Positions 53,879-61,760 are shown, counted from the first letter of the stretch. The stretch: DNA of 64,000 nucleotides from an uncultured bacterium (GCA_964544765.1 CAZJDM010000001.1:1851-65850); one strand, 5' to 3'. Program-made: numbers and translations. The notes: generated by a model from the letters alone, not told the origin.

Positions 53879-55387
53879 TTGAAAACTCTTCTTTTGAATG
53901 GGAATCAACTATCAATTAATCAGGCAATAGAAGCAGTTACTCAAACTGTTAAATTAAAAATAGATACCAAATGTCTTCCTTATATTAATAAATCACGAAA
54001 GTTTATTGAAAATATAATCAACAAAGCGGAACCTGTTTATGGAGTAAACACTGGTTTTGGATTATTAAGCAATGAAAAAATTAAACAAAAAGATCTAAAT
54101 GCTCTTCAAGAAAACTTAATCCGCAGTCATGCTGCTGGTGTTGGAAAACCACTGGATCCTCTAATCGTCAAACTAATCATACTTTTTAAAGCTAATAGCT
54201 TGATTATAGGTCATTCAGCTGTACGACCTATAATTATAGAACAGTTACTCAATTTATTTAATCAGGAAATTATACCAGTTGTTCCTCAAAAAGGTTCGGT
54301 AGGCGCAAGTGGTGATTTAGCTCCTTTAGCTCATTTATCTTTGGTATTAATGGGAGAGGGAGAAGCTTTTTATCGAGGTAAACGCATATCAGGATCGAAG
54401 GCTTTGAAAATTGCTGGTTTAGATCCTATTAAACTATCTGCTAAAGAAGGATTATCATTAATCAACGGGACTCAAGTTATGACAGCCATTGGTTGTTGGG
54501 CTTATTATCTGGCGAATATTCTAGCTGATACTGCTGATGTGGTTGGCGCTACCACCTTAGATGCGCTTCAAGGCACTTTAGCCCCTTTTGATCCTGATAT
54601 TCAAAGAGTTAGACCCCATCAAGGACAAGAAATAGTCGCCAATAATTTTTTAAAACTGTTAGAGGAGGATGAAATTCGTGAAAATCACAAAAATGATGAC
54701 GATCGAGTTCAGGATCCTTATTCACTACGTTGTATCCCTCAAGTTCATGGAGCAGCTAGAGATATCATAGATCATGTAAAAACGGTTCTATCTAAAGAAA
54801 TAAATTCAGTTACAGATAATCCTTTAGTCTTTCCTGAAAAAGACAAAATTCTTTCTGGTGGCAATTTTCACGGCCAGCCAGTGGCATTTGCCATGGATTA
54901 CCTTGCTTTAGGCTGTGCCGAATTGGGAAGTATAGCCGAAAGGCGGATTGATAAGCTGGTCAATCCTATTTTTAATTTATTGCCGGCCTTTTTGGTAAAA
55001 AACAGCGGCTTAAATTCCGGTTTTATGATTCCCCACGTAGTTGCCGCCTCTTTAGTATCAGAAAACAAGATTTTATGTCACCCGGCTAGTATCGATTCAA
55101 TTCCTACCTCGGCTGATAAAGAAGATCATGTCAGCATGGGAACCATTGCTGCTCGTAAATGTATAGATGTAATTTATAATGTTATGCATGTTCTGGCCAT
55201 TGAAGTTATAGCCGCCTGTCAAGGACTTGATTTTCATAAGCCACTTAAACCTGGCATTGGACCGCAAAAGGTTTACCAACATGTTCGTAAGAAAGTTCCT
55301 TTCTTTAAGAAAGACATTTTCTTTGGTCCTTATATCGAAGATATTAAGAAAGATATTGAAAAAGGGATGTTTGCGTCTATATTGTAA
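53879..55387 (+). CDS. hutH: histidine ammonia-lyase family (HAL/PAL aromatic amino acid lyase)
   Basis: GSVGASGDLAPLAH contains the ASG triad that forms the MIO cofactor. 502 aa. No hutU or hutI nearby. Confidence 0.75.
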   Translation: MKTLLLNGNQLSINQAIEAVTQTVKLKIDTKCLPYINKSRKFIENIINKAEPVYGVNTGFGLLSNEKIKQKDLNALQENLIRSHAAGVGKPLDPLIVKLIILFKANSLIIGHSAVRPIIIEQLLNLFNQEIIPVVPQKGSVGASGDLAPLAHLSLVLMGEGEAFYRGKRISGSKALKIAGLDPIKLSAKEGLSLINGTQVMTAIGCWAYYLANILADTADVVGATTLDALQGTLAPFDPDIQRVRPHQGQEIVANNFLKLLEEDEIRENHKNDDDRVQDPYSLRCIPQVHGAARDIIDHVKTVLSKEINSVTDNPLVFPEKDKILSGGNFHGQPVAFAMDYLALGCAELGSIAERRIDKLVNPIFNLLPAFLVKNSGLNSGFMIPHVVAASLVSENKILCHPASIDSIPTSADKEDHVSMGTIAARKCIDVIYNVMHVLAIEVIAACQGLDFHKPLKPGIGPQKVYQHVRKKVPFFKKDIFFGPYIEDIKKDIEKGMFASIL

Positions 55388-55502
55388 CAAGTCTTCTAAA
55401 TACCAGCTTGAAATAGTCGATATTTTTAAGTATACCCAAATAGCTCACCTTTGAGGTTGATTTATCGCCTTTACGATTGAGCTATTTGAGAGATACCTAT
55501 AC

Positions 55503-56657
55503 ATGAGTTTATTCTATTTCGATCACGCAGCTTCAACGCCCATGATGCCCGAAGCTATCCAGACACTTACCAGGAGTTCAAGCTCAGATTTTATGAACTC
55601 TGCTTCTAATCATAAACTGGGAAAAGAATTGAATAAACGACTAGAAATTGCTCGTAGCAAGTTTTTAGATTTCTTAAAGGCTCACGACCACTACCAGTTT
55701 ATTTTTACTAGCTCAGCAACTGAATCAAATAATATGGTAGCCAAAGGTTTAGCTCTTAATCCGCAGGACCAGATCTTTATCTGTTTAGCAGATCATCCCA
55801 GCCTAATAAAACCATGGGACAGTAAATTATTACACCAAGTAGAGGTCCAAGAGATTCCCTGGAAAAAAAATGGACAAATTGATATAACTACACTAATAAA
55901 AACCCTAACAATAAATACTCGCTTAATCAGTCTTGCCCAGGTCAACAACCATTGTGGTAGTCTACATGATGTTATCTCAATTGCCAAACAAGTAAAAAAG
56001 ATCCATCCCCACATCCATTTCCATGTTGATGCCGCCCAATCTTTTGCTAAAATTCCTTTTCAATTGCACCCTTCAATAGATACACTATCTATATCTGCTC
56101 ACAAAATGGGTGGTCCTAAAGGAATTGCGGGTTTGTACATCAAAAAAGGAATAAAATTGGATCCTTTGATGGAAGGGGGGGGACATGAACTGGCTTTGAG
56201 ACCCTCTACCATAGCATGCCCTTTAGCTTTTTCTTTTTTAAAAGCCGCTGAGTTAAGATTTGCGAAATTAACTGAAACATATACACGATTGCTAGAATTA
56301 CACAATTATTTAATAAGAAGTCTTAAAGAACAAATCCCCGTAGTTAAAGTTCATTTCATTGATGAAGAAGACTCTGTTGTATCACCTTATATCACACTAA
56401 TTATTTTACCTGATGTATCCGCGGATATTGTAATTAGAAATTTACAAGATAAAAATATCTTTGTATCAACCAACGCCGCTTGTTCTTCCCGCATTAAAGA
56501 CGATAATCCCGCCTACCGGGTTTTGCATATTCCAAATAAATATAGAAAAAACCTAATTCGCATTTCTATAGCACCAGAAACCACTAGCGATCAAATTGAT
56601 TACCTGGTTTCTAATCTAAAGGAAGTATACTCCGACCTACATAGCATTTTAGAATAA
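55503..56657 (+). CDS. class V aminotransferase / cysteine desulfurase (NifS/IscS/NifZ-like)
   Basis: PLP-lysine context SAHKMGGPKG and the fold-type I pattern. 384 aa. Confidence 0.7.
   Translation: MSLFYFDHAASTPMMPEAIQTLTRSSSSDFMNSASNHKLGKELNKRLEIARSKFLDFLKAHDHYQFIFTSSATESNNMVAKGLALNPQDQIFICLADHPSLIKPWDSKLLHQVEVQEIPWKKNGQIDITTLIKTLTINTRLISLAQVNNHCGSLHDVISIAKQVKKIHPHIHFHVDAAQSFAKIPFQLHPSIDTLSISAHKMGGPKGIAGLYIKKGIKLDPLMEGGGHELALRPSTIACPLAFSFLKAAELRFAKLTETYTRLLELHNYLIRSLKEQIPVVKVHFIDEEDSVVSPYITLIILPDVSADIVIRNLQDKNIFVSTNAACSSRIKDDNPAYRVLHIPNKYRKNLIRISIAPETTSDQIDYLVSNLKEVYSDLHSILE
56175..56182. repeat. homopolymeric G8 inside the cysteine desulfurase coding sequence
   Basis: ggaa gggggggg acat read directly. 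Encodes MEGGGHE. Confidence 0.9.
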
Positions 56658-56717
56658 CTAGATGGTACTAATAATAGCTAAGACTACGACGTTGGAACGA
56701 ATAGGTCCATGTCCAAA

Positions 56718-57719
56718 TCAAAAATTCGATTTAATGTGATACACTCCTAAGATTACCTTTAAGAATTGCTCCTGCCACTTTTTCAAATCATCAAGCACCG
56801 AGCTTACTGTATATTGATCAGTTACGTGCCGTTTTTGCTGCCTAGCCTCTTCTAGCAACTTTTCAGCGAAGCAAACAAAATCACCATGGTATGGGAAATC
56901 AACTGATGCGATTTTATATTTAAGAGAGTTGTAGCTATATCTAAATGTAAAAGTAATATTATCTGTTTTTAGGTCATAAAAAAGACACCGATTGTGGAAG
57001 CAATTTCTTTTATCACGAGGAGTGTAATATTTCATTGGCAGGGTATCCACAATCATTCTTGCTTGCTCTGCATTAATACTTGTTCTAAATGGAAAAATTC
57101 TTACAATCTCTTCCTGAGTGATTTTATTGGGGTCTGGCGGTAATGGCACTTGATGATATATCACCTTTAAAAACCTAGTATCAGACGTTATTCTTATTTT
57201 AAGCATATCTTCTAAGAGATAATCTTCTTTTAATTCTTGCATGTACTGTGGGTTTTCTCTTAAAAAATGAAGTAATAAGTTAAGTTGTAACAATGTAAAA
57301 GAAAAGCTAATACCTAAAGTGTCTCTATCAAAACCCATCTCTACAATGATTCCTTGAGTATTTAACTCACTAATTACTTTATCAGTATCTAACAGGTGTT
57401 CTAAATATTTAGCTTTATCGGTAAGAGTACCATATTCAAGGTCCAATCCTATGCTATTGGCGACAGAGAAAATATCTTCTCTAGACTCACCACTCGACAT
57501 AAACTCTTTATGTTTGACATCCTTTGGTTTACAAATCTGATTCACTCTGCACTTATAAGCTTTAAAAAACCCAAAAGAAATCCCTGTGACATTTCCATAA
57601 AGATCTAAAACGAAAGAGCCACTATCACCATGTTGTTGACTAAAACCATATTGAGAATGGTCATGCTTGGGTACAAATAAGTCAAATTGTTGAATATCTT
57701 TATCAGGAGATTTAAACAT
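56718..57719 (-). CDS. orphan protein beginning with a trypsin-like serine-protease C-terminal remnant (GDSGS...GISFG) followed by ~270 aa of unknown function
   Basis: HGDSGSFVLDLYGNVTGISFG parallels the chymotrypsin/HtrA Ser195 region (GDSGGP...G.V.GI.S.G). There is no upstream His/Asp region. The reading frame continues open upstream into the IS200-like remnant. Confidence 0.4.
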   Translation of the reverse strand: MFKSPDKDIQQFDLFVPKHDHSQYGFSQQHGDSGSFVLDLYGNVTGISFGFFKAYKCRVNQICKPKDVKHKEFMSSGESREDIFSVANSIGLDLEYGTLTDKAKYLEHLLDTDKVISELNTQGIIVEMGFDRDTLGISFSFTLLQLNLLLHFLRENPQYMQELKEDYLLEDMLKIRITSDTRFLKVIYHQVPLPPDPNKITQEEIVRIFPFRTSINAEQARMIVDTLPMKYYTPRDKRNCFHNRCLFYDLKTDNITFTFRYSYNSLKYKIASVDFPYHGDFVCFAEKLLEEARQQKRHVTDQYTVSSVLDDLKKWQEQFLKVILGVYHIKSNF

Positions 57720-57769
57720 AAAAGGACCAACTTTTGATATAGATAAGCAGACATCACATTTGGCTAAAT

Positions 57770-58126
57770 ATGATAAAACAACTTCTCGTTTATACAGGAG
57801 AACATGTGAAAAAGATGATTAATCAATTGACAAAAAGAAATGACGCAAAATTTACTATAGAAAAGATGGAAGTCGACAAGGATCATATCCATCTTATGGT
57901 AAATGCGAATCCTAACGTATCCGCAACTCAAATTATTAGAAGAATTAAACAAAACACTACTTTTTTAATTTGGAATGAGTTTAATGATTATTTGAAAAAA
58001 CACTATTGGAAAGAGAAGACTTTTTGGTCAGATGGTTACTTTGTTTCATCTATAGGAAATGCTTCAGAAGACACTATTCGGAGGTATATTGATAACCAAG
58101 GATATAAAACACCAAGACTAAGCTGA
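57770..58126 (+). mobile_element. tnpA: IS200/IS605-family (HUH, Y1) transposase TnpA-like ORF, apparently N-terminally truncated or degenerate
   Basis: HUH motif HIHLMV and catalytic-Tyr region FWSDGYFVSSIG align with IS200 TnpA. The N-terminal beta-strand (YHxVFxxKYRR) is missing. Confidence 0.5.
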
Positions 58127-58202
58127 CATTATACTAAATATAGCAATCAAAATCAATGTATTCATCACTTAAACATCAACACCAGTTTAATCATAAGGAA
58201 AA

Positions 58203-59402
58203 CTAAAAAGAAATAATTTCCATCTGAGAAATCGTATCAACAATTCTATCCTCTAACTGAAGATTGCCAATCACCTGCTGCCAATAGGATTGATAAGGCT
58301 TGGTAATAGGGTGTTTAGCGGCAAATAAACTACAGGCGTCATCATGAGGTCTTACAGAAATGGGGTGAGTACCAATTTTCTCGGATAGATTAATAATCTC
58401 CTGTTTATTAAATCCAGATAACGGTCTAAATATTGGCAACGCAGTTGCCTGATTAACTAATGATATATTATCAAGGGTTTGACTAGATACCTGCCCTAGA
58501 GAATCACCGGTTACTATGCCTCCAGCGCCAACTTTTTGGGCAATTCTGGTGGCAATTTTAATCATGAACCAACGAAATAAGATTGTACGATAGGAGGTTT
58601 TACATTGTTTGGTAATGTCTTTTTGCACCGTTCCAAAAGGAATTATATAAAGATTACATCCATTTTGATAACGCCCTAACACTTTCATTAAATCGATAAT
58701 TTTATCTTTAACTTCTTCCCCAACATAAGGATAAGCATAGAAAAATAGAAAAGTTTGTTTACAACCCCTTTTGGACATTAAATAACTTGCCACTGGAGAA
58801 TCAAAGCCACCAGACAACAAGCACACTAGATGACCACTAGTTCCAACCGGTAATCCACCGACACCTTCGTAGCTGCGAGTATATAAATAGGATCCATCTT
58901 GTAGGATTCTTATATATAAAACTATGTCAGGATTCCTTAAATTCACTTTTAAACCATCTACGTTCTTTAAAATATGATGACCAACCTGAGCAGCCAAATC
59001 TGTGCTGGTTAAAGGAAAGGTCTTTTTAGCTCTTTTGACCCTGACCGCAAAAGTAATTAAGGACAGATCTTTCTTTGCATTCTTTTTATCCTTTATATTA
59101 TTAACTTCCGGCCTTAAGATATCTAGTGAGGAAGAAAAAATCTGTTCCATTTGCCAATCAATCTTTAAAGCGGATTGAATAGAGTGAATACCCGGAATAC
59201 ACAGCAAATTGTCTATAGTGCTCTTATCAAAATCTTTTTTTGATTCTAAAATATGACGATGATCTATTAATTGATAATGAACTTTTTCATTATGAGTCTT
59301 TTCCATTGTTTGTAATATATGTTCTTTTAAGGTTTTACGATAAAAAGATTGATTATCTCCTTTTAGCCAAAGCTCGTGAACACTAATCATTAAAATTTTC
59401 AC
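58203..59402 (-). CDS. thiI: tRNA 4-thiouridine synthase ThiI
   Basis: PP-loop SGGFDSPVA and N-terminal THUMP-like region. 399 aa. Confidence 0.8.
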   Translation of the reverse strand: MKILMISVHELWLKGDNQSFYRKTLKEHILQTMEKTHNEKVHYQLIDHRHILESKKDFDKSTIDNLLCIPGIHSIQSALKIDWQMEQIFSSSLDILRPEVNNIKDKKNAKKDLSLITFAVRVKRAKKTFPLTSTDLAAQVGHHILKNVDGLKVNLRNPDIVLYIRILQDGSYLYTRSYEGVGGLPVGTSGHLVCLLSGGFDSPVASYLMSKRGCKQTFLFFYAYPYVGEEVKDKIIDLMKVLGRYQNGCNLYIIPFGTVQKDITKQCKTSYRTILFRWFMIKIATRIAQKVGAGGIVTGDSLGQVSSQTLDNISLVNQATALPIFRPLSGFNKQEIINLSEKIGTHPISVRPHDDACSLFAAKHPITKPYQSYWQQVIGNLQLEDRIVDTISQMEIISF

Positions 59403-59656
59403 TCTTAAATCCTATGTCTGGTTTAGTGGGTATAGGGGTAATTGTCCTAAACATATACCTAATAAATATTGTCAGGCCAATCACTGATTTGCTCTAAATA
59501 ACAAACATAGATTAAATTGTACAAGCATTTATTTAAACCACTAATTGTCTACGATACGTAGGTTTTTCAACAACTTATATTAAAAATATTTTTAAGTTTT
59601 GATTTTCTCGTCCGATCCTAACTCATATAGATAAAGATATAAAAAGGAGCGACATA

Positions 59657-61243
59657 ATGACATCCATAAGAAATCGAATAAAAAAGCTAAGAAAAAACAA
59701 GAATGAAAAGGATATTCCTATAATAATGAAGGATAAATCTTCGACTACGAAGCAAAATGATCCTGAAATTACCTCCCAATCTAAATGCTCCCAAGAAGCC
59801 CAAGATAATGATAAAGAAATCCCTAATTATGCAAAAAAAACCCTAATAGATGAAGCTCATTTTAATCACATTCAACTTTTAACTTACGTAAATACTTTTG
59901 TGGTGATGGTTTGCTTCATAATGATATCAATTCAATTTTTCTCTAAAAAACCAATTCAATCTAAAACGGACCTTTCACCCTCTCAAAAAAGCTTTGCTGC
60001 TTCTAGTCTAAAAGAAACGGTTGAAAATAAGACGTTAACAGCAAGTAGTACTTCTGCAGATAAAGAAAAAAATATGAATCTTTCACCAACCATAAAAATT
60101 CGCGACCCTGAAGCAGATGATAATCCTTCCCTTTCGATAGCATTACCCTCAAGAGATATACCAAATAACAAAAAAACCAAGAAAAAACAAATGCTGGGAC
60201 CTACAATCACAAATAAAGCTATTACAAATCTACAAACAAAGGAAGAATCGAATACACCTTATAATTCTTATAACTCTAATGTTAAGGATTCCTTAAATAG
60301 AAAGTCAGAAGAATTACCCACAACAGCTTTATATAATTACTTTAAACAGTTAAATAAAAAACAAAGCGATTCACCATCTCACAGGTTTATAACTCGTGAT
60401 TTCACGTTTCACTTTTCGGACCATATCTACAAATCCGGAAAATATCAAATAACTGAAAGAATAGAGACCGTTTTGGAAGAAATAGCTAATCTGGTAAAAC
60501 CTTTCGAGAAGGATTTAACATTAACCGTGATAGGGCATTCTGAAACACAGGAAAAGGAAGTATCAAGCCATCACGATGAGCCACCTTCACTCTCTCTATT
60601 ACGAGCACAAGGAGCTATTGAGATACTAAACCTACTCGATCTCAGAGATTGTAGCGCTATAGCAGTGGGTGCTGAAAACAAAATTCGCAATGCCAGATCT
60701 ATTAGCATACGATTTGAAAGAAATATGAATCCTTCTACCAATACAGACGATCAATCACACAAAAGATTGTTAGACAAAGATGAAAAGCAAGTAAGCTCAG
60801 ATAAATTATCAATAGACAAATTTGAAGACACCCTTAATGAAATAGATCGTTTTTTAAAAACTAAAGAATTGGGTTATATTGATAGATCATCCTCAACTTC
60901 TGCGGTTCTTCATTTCAAAAACAATTATTTCAATACCGGAGAATTTAAATTATCAAGTAAAGAAAGAAAAGATATTAACCAACTGTATAAAATAATTAAT
61001 ATTTTAAGCAGCGACATAAAATTAGAGGTCATTGGACATACTGACGCTAGGAAAATAAAAACCAAAGCTCTCAAAAAAGCAGTAGCTAATAATTTGTTAC
61101 TATCTAAATTAAGGGCTCAAACTATAGCTCAAGCTATGATCAAAAGTGGATTTAAAACAGAAAACATTGAAACTCGTGGAAAAGGACCGTCAGAAAGGGA
61201 TACTCGTAGTGTTAGTATCCATATGCAAATAAAAACTATTTAA
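59657..61243 (+). CDS. membrane-anchored protein with two tandem degenerate OmpA-like peptidoglycan-binding domains
   Basis: Basic cytoplasmic N-terminus, one TM helix with no conserved Asp (LLTYVNTFVVMVCFIMISIQFF), then two OmpA_C-like modules (…LTLTVIGHSETQ…LLRAQGAIEIL and …LEVIGHTDARK…LLLSKLRAQTIAQAMIKSG). Confidence 0.55.
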   Translation: MTSIRNRIKKLRKNKNEKDIPIIMKDKSSTTKQNDPEITSQSKCSQEAQDNDKEIPNYAKKTLIDEAHFNHIQLLTYVNTFVVMVCFIMISIQFFSKKPIQSKTDLSPSQKSFAASSLKETVENKTLTASSTSADKEKNMNLSPTIKIRDPEADDNPSLSIALPSRDIPNNKKTKKKQMLGPTITNKAITNLQTKEESNTPYNSYNSNVKDSLNRKSEELPTTALYNYFKQLNKKQSDSPSHRFITRDFTFHFSDHIYKSGKYQITERIETVLEEIANLVKPFEKDLTLTVIGHSETQEKEVSSHHDEPPSLSLLRAQGAIEILNLLDLRDCSAIAVGAENKIRNARSISIRFERNMNPSTNTDDQSHKRLLDKDEKQVSSDKLSIDKFEDTLNEIDRFLKTKELGYIDRSSSTSAVLHFKNNYFNTGEFKLSSKERKDINQLYKIINILSSDIKLEVIGHTDARKIKTKALKKAVANNLLLSKLRAQTIAQAMIKSGFKTENIETRGKGPSERDTRSVSIHMQIKTI

Positions 61244-61325: not shown

Positions 61326-61760
61326 ATGAAAAAAAACTTTGATTTTACGACATTATTTTCTGACGATTCTTTTGAAAAGCTTTCTAAGCTGACACAAAAA
61401 CGATTTATCGCCTACCTAAAATCAGACGAGACCATTACTTTTAGCGGTTCTTTTGATCAATTAGCATTGAAAATAGACCTATCTTTATCTAACAAGGACA
61501 GGTCATTCTACTATGAAATCAATGCTGCGATGGACCTAGTTTCAAATCCCCCAATTACTCCCTCAGACGCCCGGGACAAAGTAATCGACCTAATAGACCA
61601 ATATCTCATCGAATATTTTGAGAGCGGTAGAGAAGTTTTTCTTTTTATAGACTGGAAAACATATACAATTGATCAATACACTATCCACATGAAAGGACAA
61701 ATCTTAAACAAATTAGCTGAAGATATGGCGGACCAATTATTACAAGGAAATTCGCATTAA
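61326..61760 (+). CDS. hypothetical protein (144 aa)
   Basis: Unbroken ORF with an RBS-like upstream sequence. No recognisable motif. Confidence 0.35.
   Translation: MKKNFDFTTLFSDDSFEKLSKLTQKRFIAYLKSDETITFSGSFDQLALKIDLSLSNKDRSFYYEINAAMDLVSNPPITPSDARDKVIDLIDQYLIEYFESGREVFLFIDWKTYTIDQYTIHMKGQILNKLAEDMADQLLQGNSH

Follow-up and report, generated by a model that had tools for sequence, protein, structure and literature searches.

A probably rearranged desulfurase-thiI locus with an orphan gene and a predicted dead fragment of an IscB-type IS200/IS605 element in an uncultured bacterium

Introduction

In Bacillus subtilis, thiI is directly preceded by nifZ, and NifZ and ThiI between them are sufficient for the synthesis of s4U8 (PMC5372745). 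The biology of the IscB/omega RNA IS200/IS605 family of insertion sequences has been described as well (10.1101/2023.03.14.532601; PMC9755519). Here we present a locus at which a gene pair of the first kind and a piece of an element of the second kind lie together with a gene that has no relatives. It was analyzed within a stretch of 64,000 nt of an uncultured bacterium (GCA_964544765.1 CAZJDM010000001.1:1851-65850), hereafter the window, whose GC content is 34% and whose positions are counted from its first letter. The reading that we prefer, and hold to be probable, is that the locus consists of a rearranged nifZ-thiI pair, a lineage-specific orphan gene (ORF333) and a dead 330-bp fragment of an IscB-type IS200/IS605 element.

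Results

Gene Order and the Desulfurase-thiI Pair

The genes fmt and rpe and a histidine ammonia-lyase gene are followed by a cysteine desulfurase gene (plus strand), ORF333 (minus strand), a TnpA-like ORF (plus strand), thiI (minus strand) and a gene of the OmpA family (plus strand). The desulfurase gene, located at 55503-56657 on the plus strand, was classified with Pfam and NCBIfam profiles as NifS/IscS-like (NifS/NifZ-like); its product matches Pfam Aminotran_5 over profile positions 2-371 of 371 (E = 4.7e-51), and its best NCBIfam matches are the NifS/IscS models. The thiI gene (58203-59402, minus strand) encodes a tRNA uracil-4 sulfurtransferase without a rhodanese domain, which scores 331 bits against TIGR00342 (cutoff 264.5) and contains the ThiI, THUMP and ThiI_fer domains. 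Public assemblies call a 395-aa form of ThiI, with its start at 59390, while the 399-aa form with a GTG start is not on record. To judge from these profiles, both the desulfurase gene and thiI look intact in the window. Read along the minus strand, the order is thiI, a spacer of 98 bp, the IS fragment, a spacer of 55 bp and ORF333; this block and the desulfurase gene point toward each other. The desulfurase gene and thiI are thereby convergent and 1545 bp apart, so that no shared transcript is possible, and thiI is inverted relative to its partner.

Synteny was compared with the eight nearest genomes, namely Halobacteriovorax and further Bdellovibrionales MAGs, among them one that carries the label Omnitrophota and one that is labelled Sulfitobacter. 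The two genes are adjacent and co-directional in all eight, and neither ORF333 nor tnpA was found at the locus in any of them; the same desulfurase-thiI order recurs in three more distant genomes (L017, L019, and L025). An earlier note, made on this DNA from its sequence, had placed ORF333 and tnpA exactly between the desulfurase and ThiI and proposed a comparison of the locus among related genomes, and the comparison bears it out, as a block of 1.5 kb splits a pair that is adjacent in every relative examined. Amino-acid identity to the eight genomes is 33-42% for the desulfurase and 40-48% for ThiI, and a scan of metagenomes with ThiI for closer relatives returned only matches of 32-37% identity. 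With the nearest genomes at 33-48% identity, several rearrangements could separate them from the window genome. The gene 3' of thiI in Halobacteriovorax encodes an S41 tail-specific protease (verified with Pfam for L010). The Halobacteriovorax genes 3' of thiI were considered as a source of ORF333 and rejected, since they have no similarity to it and no counterpart in the window.

ORF333 as a Coding Gene

ORF333 is a species-specific orphan protein-coding gene of 333 aa, recognized by its open frame and its codon signal, which begins with an ATG and occupies 56718-57719 on the minus strand. Its stop-free frame covers 366 codons, whereas the longest found when the window was shuffled 200 times had 189. 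Upstream of the ATG the frame is open over 33 codons, 15 of which reach into the tnpA ORF, in agreement with the earlier observation that it runs on upstream into that ORF. Its in-frame codon-usage score is 0.167 bits/codon (best other frame, -0.005), and the window's other 42 long ORFs, which served as the comparison set, range from 0.11 to 0.45 bits/codon. Both GC and GC3 of ORF333 are typical of the window and no compositional anomaly was found at the gene. ORF333 is genuinely coding, and its codon usage is native.

Homology searches recovered only the protein itself. This was the outcome of a word-index search of 5.8e9 clusters (E <= 0.01), of the same search with 18 upstream codons added (E <= 10), and of an exhaustive phmmer run against 1.84e9 representatives (E <= 0.001), in which the one protein returned was ORF333. 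By these searches ORF333 is an absolute orphan, with no homologue among about 15 billion proteins, and thus none of the kind that the earlier note had named as a refutation, with an equal start in a genome free of the IS. Scanned whole and in segments against Pfam, NCBIfam, PADLOC and PHROGs, it matched no family apart from a weak Pfam DUF31 pointer in the N-terminal piece, which is taken up below; PADLOC (anti-phage defence) and PHROGs (phage families) gave no family even at E <= 1, and tblastn against phages and plasmids gave no match. The intact paralogue that the earlier note had suggested looking for was found neither in the window (tblastn) nor in the protein databases, where no full-length relative was found either. 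Its statement that some 270 aa of the product are unrecognizable agrees with our scans against Pfam, NCBIfam, PHROGs and PADLOC, which leave the C-terminal ~260-280 aa without a match. A structure prediction, also proposed there, did yield models, but AlphaFold without an alignment reached a pLDDT of only 34 for the full protein and 37 for residues 74-333, values at which the models are unusable and a comparison of folds is pointless.

ORF333 is 100% identical across all recovered contigs that carry it, leaving no variation from which selection could be read. All of these contigs come from marine metagenomes and have ORF333 beside the same desulfurase gene, and it was found in this single genomic context only. 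No Shine-Dalgarno-like motif was seen before the ATG, which says little, since only about half of the window's genes show one. Because no terminator-like site was found between thiI and ORF333, it is plausible that ORF333 is expressed by read-through from thiI.

These data allow us to weigh the reading that ORF333 is non-functional, either as a recent pseudogene remnant or as an untranslated open frame that has not yet acquired stops. The lack of homologues, of a predicted fold and of a Shine-Dalgarno-like motif would suit such a sequence, and so would an N-terminus that looks truncated and lies beside a rearrangement joint. However, 366 stop-free codons in DNA of 34% GC, where shuffles reach 189 at most, and a frame-specific codon signal within the range of real genes speak against it, and we regard a non-functional ORF333 as quite improbable.

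A Fragment of an IscB-Type Element

The TnpA-like ORF matches Pfam Y1_Tnp with an E-value of 5e-28, over profile positions 25-121 of 121 only. Its HUH (HIHLM) and Tyr (SDGYF) motifs are retained and align with invariant columns of the homologues, while alignment with homologues of 129-136 aa shows a loss of ~30 residues at the N-terminus, the YHI..V.KYR strand among them. The earlier note had described an ORF with both motifs and without its N-terminal strand. Both points hold, but the loss is not at the N-terminus alone, as the fragment is cut at 57775 and again at 58104. These borders were read from other contigs of the same population, in which the IS stands in unrelated contexts: 57775 is precisely where identity sets in, and 58104 precisely where it stops in copies that are not cut short. 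What the window holds is hence delimited by identity to other copies as a 330-bp internal tnpA fragment of an IscB/HEARO-type IS200/IS605 element (57775-58104, plus strand). It is 99.1-99.9% identical over its full length to three contigs (L104, L105, and L113) and 100% identical to another three (L110, L111, and L112) over the shared 251 bp (57775-58025). According to the border alignment, the annotated 'TnpA' ORF of 118 aa (57770-58126, plus strand) is chimeric: the ATG and part of codon 2 (ATGAT) come from the left flank, about 110 codons come from the IS, and the right flank contributes the final seven (YKTPRLS) together with the stop. Where the right end is intact, as in L104 and L113, tnpA ends with QG-stop at the equivalent of 58104.

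Neither flank is IS-derived. On the left, the alignment borders leave a 55-bp spacer 5' of ORF333 (57720-57774), and on the right, alignment and folding mark a 98-bp spacer without an end hairpin between the relic and the thiI stop codon (58105-58202). The possibility that the flanks are diverged IS DNA was considered, as an in-frame ISRHHIWLN 5' of the ORF333 ATG had at first seemed similar to the YHIILV strand, and was rejected, both flanks aligning to the full element at shuffle level. The earlier note had suggested looking for terminal hairpins around 57720-58200; a search of the window for the end hairpins of the element with up to 3 mismatches found none, and the flanks fold no better than shuffles (z = -0.19 for 57720-57774 and z = +0.25 for 58105-58202). 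With Rfam, 55000-60500 gave no match at E <= 1, nor did the window as a whole at the gathering score, and tblastn of the window with the ORF333 and TnpA queries recovered the locus itself only. Since the relic has to borrow its start and lacks both the first beta-strand and the end hairpins, it cannot yield an active transposase or serve one as a substrate; without the first strand, it cannot encode a transposase that folds. The segment 57775-58104 is predicted to be a dead, immobile relic from which no active transposase is possible, and the earlier interpretation of the locus as an insertion scar is sound as far as the IS is concerned, the tnpA piece being a dead IS remnant.

An 8-bp direct repeat, ATAAAACA, was read from the sequence at both borders of the relic, its left copy (57773-57780) straddling the left border and its right copy (58104-58111) the right one. 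Its empirical probability by chance is about 5e-4. The repeat hints that the two flanks may once have been continuous and that microhomology was used in the joining.

The parent element was pieced together from L112, L113 and L104, and comprises a HEARO/omega RNA, iscB, tnpA and two strong right-end hairpins. The HEARO RNA (Rfam RF02033) of L112 reaches 105.7 bits, where the gathering score is 83 (E = 1e-21), and IscB contains RRXRR (E = 2e-58) and HNH. In the full-length element, tnpA has ATC where an ATG start would be expected. The end hairpins were defined from L105 and L104, and one of the two at the right end, CCCACCGACTAAAGATCGGTGGG, mirrors that at the left end, CCCAGCGACTAAAGATCGCTGGG, with compensatory changes (fold z of -6.8 at the right and -3.8 at the left). 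By its predicted components, the parent is an IscB/HEARO-type IS200/IS605 element and not a plain IS200, the family to which the earlier note had assigned it. As a check for an IscB guide, the sequences 5' of the HEARO RNA (L105 and L112) were compared with 57601-58300 and share no match of at least 8 nt with it.

Copies, Junctions and Assembly

Three left junctions of the element were recovered, namely a CCG-domain gene joined to HEARO-iscB, an ABC-2 gene joined to the first 43 nt of HEARO (these in turn joined to the tnpA 5' region), and ORF333 joined to position 57775. The three right junctions are the right-end hairpins followed by a prephenate dehydratase gene (pheA), position 58025 joined to a gldG-like gene, and position 58104 joined to thiI. 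By majority they pair into a full-length copy (L113 and L104), a damaged copy in a gldA/F/G-like ABC operon (L110 and L111), and the copy of the window.

Three assemblies (the window contig, L001, and L004) agree on the pairing of ORF333, relic and thiI, which is also the sole pairing left once the other two copies are matched. The junction pairing in the window is therefore well supported and probably correct. The path through a 330-bp repeat could in principle be a choice of the assembler, and L105 and L112 show that mis-pairing occurs. L105, which runs from ABC-2 through the IS into thiI, was considered as an IS-mediated recombinant and is more simply explained as a chimeric contig, given that its left side leads into gldG in L110 and L111; L112, which joins iscB to the gldG junction, is likewise taken as chimeric through the repeat. 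Many contigs of several assemblies end inside the fragment (at 57986, 58024 or 58098), and JGI contigs have 5 SNPs within the 330 bp versus at most 1 in the adjoining 7 kb; the repeat explains both. Since it breaks or mis-joins metagenomic contigs of this organism, gene order near it needs care.

The other copies also bear on the proposal, made in the earlier note as one of two possibilities, that ORF333 was cargo left behind by the IS. Such a passenger or accessory gene would take the place of a divergent tnpB and would have stayed when the element decayed. The geometry would be fitting, as ORF333 and tnpA are divergent with a gap of 50 bp and a similar arrangement, with TnpB divergent at a distance of 75 bp, accompanies a related TnpA (P0005, 52% identity). 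Yet ORF333 is absent from every other recovered IS context, that is, from the full-length HEARO-iscB-tnpA-RE arrangement, the relic in the ABC operon and the pheA flank. The ORF333 side, moreover, meets the IS inside tnpA at 57775, no end hairpin lies beyond ORF333, and the gene occurs in one context only and is unlike TnpB or IscB. We therefore abandon the cargo origin as highly improbable. ORF333 was also compared directly by BLASTP with the TnpB of L103 and the IscB-like protein of L101 (best E of 15 and 0.44, respectively); it has no Pfam match to these families and was rejected as a TnpB or IscB.

The Serine-Protease-Like Segment

A trypsin-fold-like catalytic-serine segment, GDSGSFVLDLYGNVTGISFG, was identified by motif at residues 31-50 of ORF333 (57629-57570, minus strand), close to the N-terminus and not at its very start. 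It fits the trypsin-fold consensus, with the catalytic Ser followed by a G-x-V-x-G-I-x-x-G strand, and the extended motif agrees with that consensus at about a dozen positions. By chance, G[DN]SG[GS] is expected 0.065 times per window, and the extended motif appeared in none of 200 window shuffles. When the N-terminal piece was scanned alone, the sole Pfam pointer was to the last 38 positions of Mycop_pep_DUF31, an S1-like peptidase family (E about 0.1). BLASTP of residues 150-215 of the V8 glutamyl endopeptidase (query sequence checked against PDB 1wcz and 1qy6) against the N-terminus of ORF333 aligned ORF333 residues 18-50 with V8 residues 154-186, centred on the catalytic Ser, with 13/33 identical residues (23.1 bits, E = 1e-4, a value for a single comparison chosen post hoc after the motif had been seen). 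A PDB-wide phmmer search with ORF333 found no S1 protease; neither Trypsin nor Trypsin_2 matched ORF333, and no S1 profile was significant.

The His/Asp half of the catalytic triad is absent from ORF333, in which 29 residues precede the motif, or 47 if the open frame up to the IS border is counted. No signal peptide is apparent by eye, and no detached 5' half was found nearby. With the Ser segment and without the His/Asp half, the product of ORF333 cannot be a protease. ORF333 probably descends from a larger gene with an N-terminal trypsin-fold protease domain, of which the last strands round the catalytic Ser would be what is left. The earlier note had the ORF opening with the Ser195 segment of a decapitated protease: the segment is there and the His/Asp half is missing, but it begins at residue 31 and not at the first residue, and the decapitation has a match at the level of the Ser motif, with no full-length relative, paralogue or nearby 5' half found to accompany it. 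The protease ancestry rests on about 33 residues, and no profile or database search is significant.

When 57775-58104 is removed in silico, the ORF333 frame runs at once into a stop upstream of the gene; the 98-bp right spacer has no frame that stays open. Given the immediate stop, the fragment did not simply split a longer ORF, and for both reasons we rejected the idea that a lost protease half is to be found on the far side of the IS fragment. The closing of the frame is what would be expected if ORF333 were an intact, fast-evolving and lineage-specific gene that has always started about here, with GDSGS...G.V.GI..G as coincidence or convergence and the IS fragment merely having landed in the spacer. 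Once the fragment is removed, the flanks form a plausible intergenic spacer of 153 bp; the direct repeat at both borders looks as if they had once been continuous, no S1 profile is significant and the codon usage is native. Against an intact gene, however, argue the extended motif with its dozen or so consensus positions, never reproduced in 200 shuffles, the 33 residues aligned with V8 around the catalytic Ser, and the fact that the sole Pfam pointer falls on the serine-bearing end of an S1-like family. Weighing the two sides, we consider this account a serious, if less likely, alternative.

Discussion

Under the preferred reading, that of a rearranged nifZ-thiI pair with an orphan gene and a dead IS fragment, the present gene order would follow from the ancestral one through a single inversion of a thiI-ORF333 block. 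ORF333 would probably be read through from thiI, and its present role, if any, would rest on the unrecognizable C-terminal ~260 residues. If a 5' half of ORF333 was lost, this may have happened in the same event that brought the IS fragment or in an earlier or separate one. As ORF333 meets the IS inside tnpA and not at an end of the element, the joint is a product of illegitimate recombination and not of transposition. A more specific history can be formulated, in which ORF333 is a young chimera of a protease sliver and ~260 residues without relatives, kept and expressed 3' of thiI in a non-proteolytic role, and made by a microhomology-type rearrangement that inserted the 330-bp fragment within the bounds of the 8-bp repeat; taken as a whole, we find it distinctly unlikely.

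The locus is ordinary genome wear and not a new system. The 118-aa 'IS200/IS605 transposase' that annotation pipelines will call here is the chimeric ORF on the dead fragment, and ORF333 is noteworthy only as a possible remnant-derived gene. As for the pair itself, the locus indicates that a dedicated desulfurase and ThiI can survive uncoupling and inversion of their genes.

Compared with known systems, ORF333 aligns with the S1B glutamyl endopeptidase V8 (PA clan, S1; PDB 1qy6 and 1wcz) over the pattern G-D/N-S-G-S-x-V ... G-x-V-x-G-I-x-x-G around the catalytic Ser, whereas it differs from S1 proteases in having no His, no Asp and no first beta-barrel, and in the about 280 unrelated residues that follow the motif. 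Its position recalls the divergent tnpA/tnpB arrangement of IS605-type elements, where an ORF of ~330-400 aa is likewise divergent from tnpA across a gap of 50-75 bp; unlike tnpB, ORF333 has no OrfB_IS605, RuvC or zinc-ribbon match, and none of the element's other recovered copies carries it. In contrast to complete IscB/omega RNA IS200/IS605 elements, the window copy has no HEARO RNA, no iscB, neither of the hairpins, no tnpA start and no first beta-strand, and its start and stop are borrowed, although over the length of the fragment such an element of the same population has a tnpA of 99-100% identity, and HUH and Tyr are kept. Finally, while the pair in the window is convergent and 1.5 kb apart, unlike nifZ-thiI of B. 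subtilis, it resembles that system in consisting of a dedicated class-V desulfurase gene and a rhodanese-less thiI, which are adjacent in all relatives examined.

Copies of the element within the population

A complete IscB-type IS200/IS605 element is also present in the same population, on three contigs (L112, 870-2801; L113; L104, 1-560). Its components are arranged in the order HEARO/omega RNA, iscB, tnpA and two right-end hairpins. The HEARO/omega RNA is located at 870-1107 of L112 (Rfam RF02033, 105.7 bits), followed by iscB at 1,103-2,509, which encodes a 468 aa protein with RRXRR and HNH domains, while the two hairpins lie 3' of tnpA at 473-528 of L104. The iscB frame extends for about 100 nt into tnpA, in a different frame from that of tnpA. 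In all copies retaining the tnpA 5' end, an ATC occupies the position of the ATG start of the homologues (L104, 67-80; L105, 870-882; the equivalent site in L110, L112 and L113), the 5' end reading ATC GAT TAT AGA, i.e., (M)DYRSKNH..., and no canonical in-frame tnpA start was found in these five contigs. The transposase of the element may be without a start, or it may be started at a non-canonical codon.

Another damaged copy is established within an ABC-transporter operon, between an ABC-2 membrane gene and a gldG-like ABC_transp_aux gene (L110, 4,041-6,484; L111, 1,374-4,042). Here the first 43 nt of the HEARO are fused straight to the tnpA 5' region with iscB deleted, and tnpA is truncated at the equivalent of position 58,025 of the window.

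Two of the contigs combine junctions from different IS copies: L105 (JGI Ga0118726_1062222) pairs the ABC-2 left junction with thiI, and L112 (SCRA20-1 scaffold_27761) the iscB left junction with gldG. Both are probably chimeric assemblies via the 330-360-bp repeat. In MAGs of the window's organism, gene order around this repeat is untrustworthy without read support.

Borders of the IS fragment and the thiI neighborhood

An 8-bp direct repeat, ATAAAACA, spans both borders of the IS fragment in the window (57,773-57,780 and 58,104-58,111). Each copy is partly flank and partly IS DNA, and with the next two bases added the copies are identical at 9 of 10 positions; the probability of such a repeat by chance is about 5e-4. 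IS200/IS605 elements are not known to produce target duplications.

Adjoining thiI in the window, a gene at 59,657-61,243 encodes a 528 aa protein with a long low-complexity N-terminal region and then two OmpA-family stretches. The next ORF (61,326-61,760; 144 aa) gave a sub-threshold PHD_like match and otherwise no family. In Halobacteriovorax-like relatives, thiI is followed by an ORF of approximately 730-750 aa (L010, 4,819-7,068; L011, 8,733-10,979; L012, 10,458-12,707; L013, 8,677-10,923; L015, 6,226-8,421), which was checked for L010 and is there a tail-specific protease (Pfam Peptidase_S41, TSP_NTD and PDZ). The window contains no equivalent of this ORF, which is unrelated to the 333 aa orphan ORF.

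TnpA homologues outside the species

The nearest TnpA homologues beyond the window's species present 52-57% identity and adjoin OMEGA nucleases (L101, 320-1,899; L103, 1,709-3,402). In L101 an RRXRR/HNH gene lies upstream of the homologue and overlaps it, while in L103 a TnpB is divergent from it and the pair is surrounded by DNA polymerase B and topoisomerase genes.
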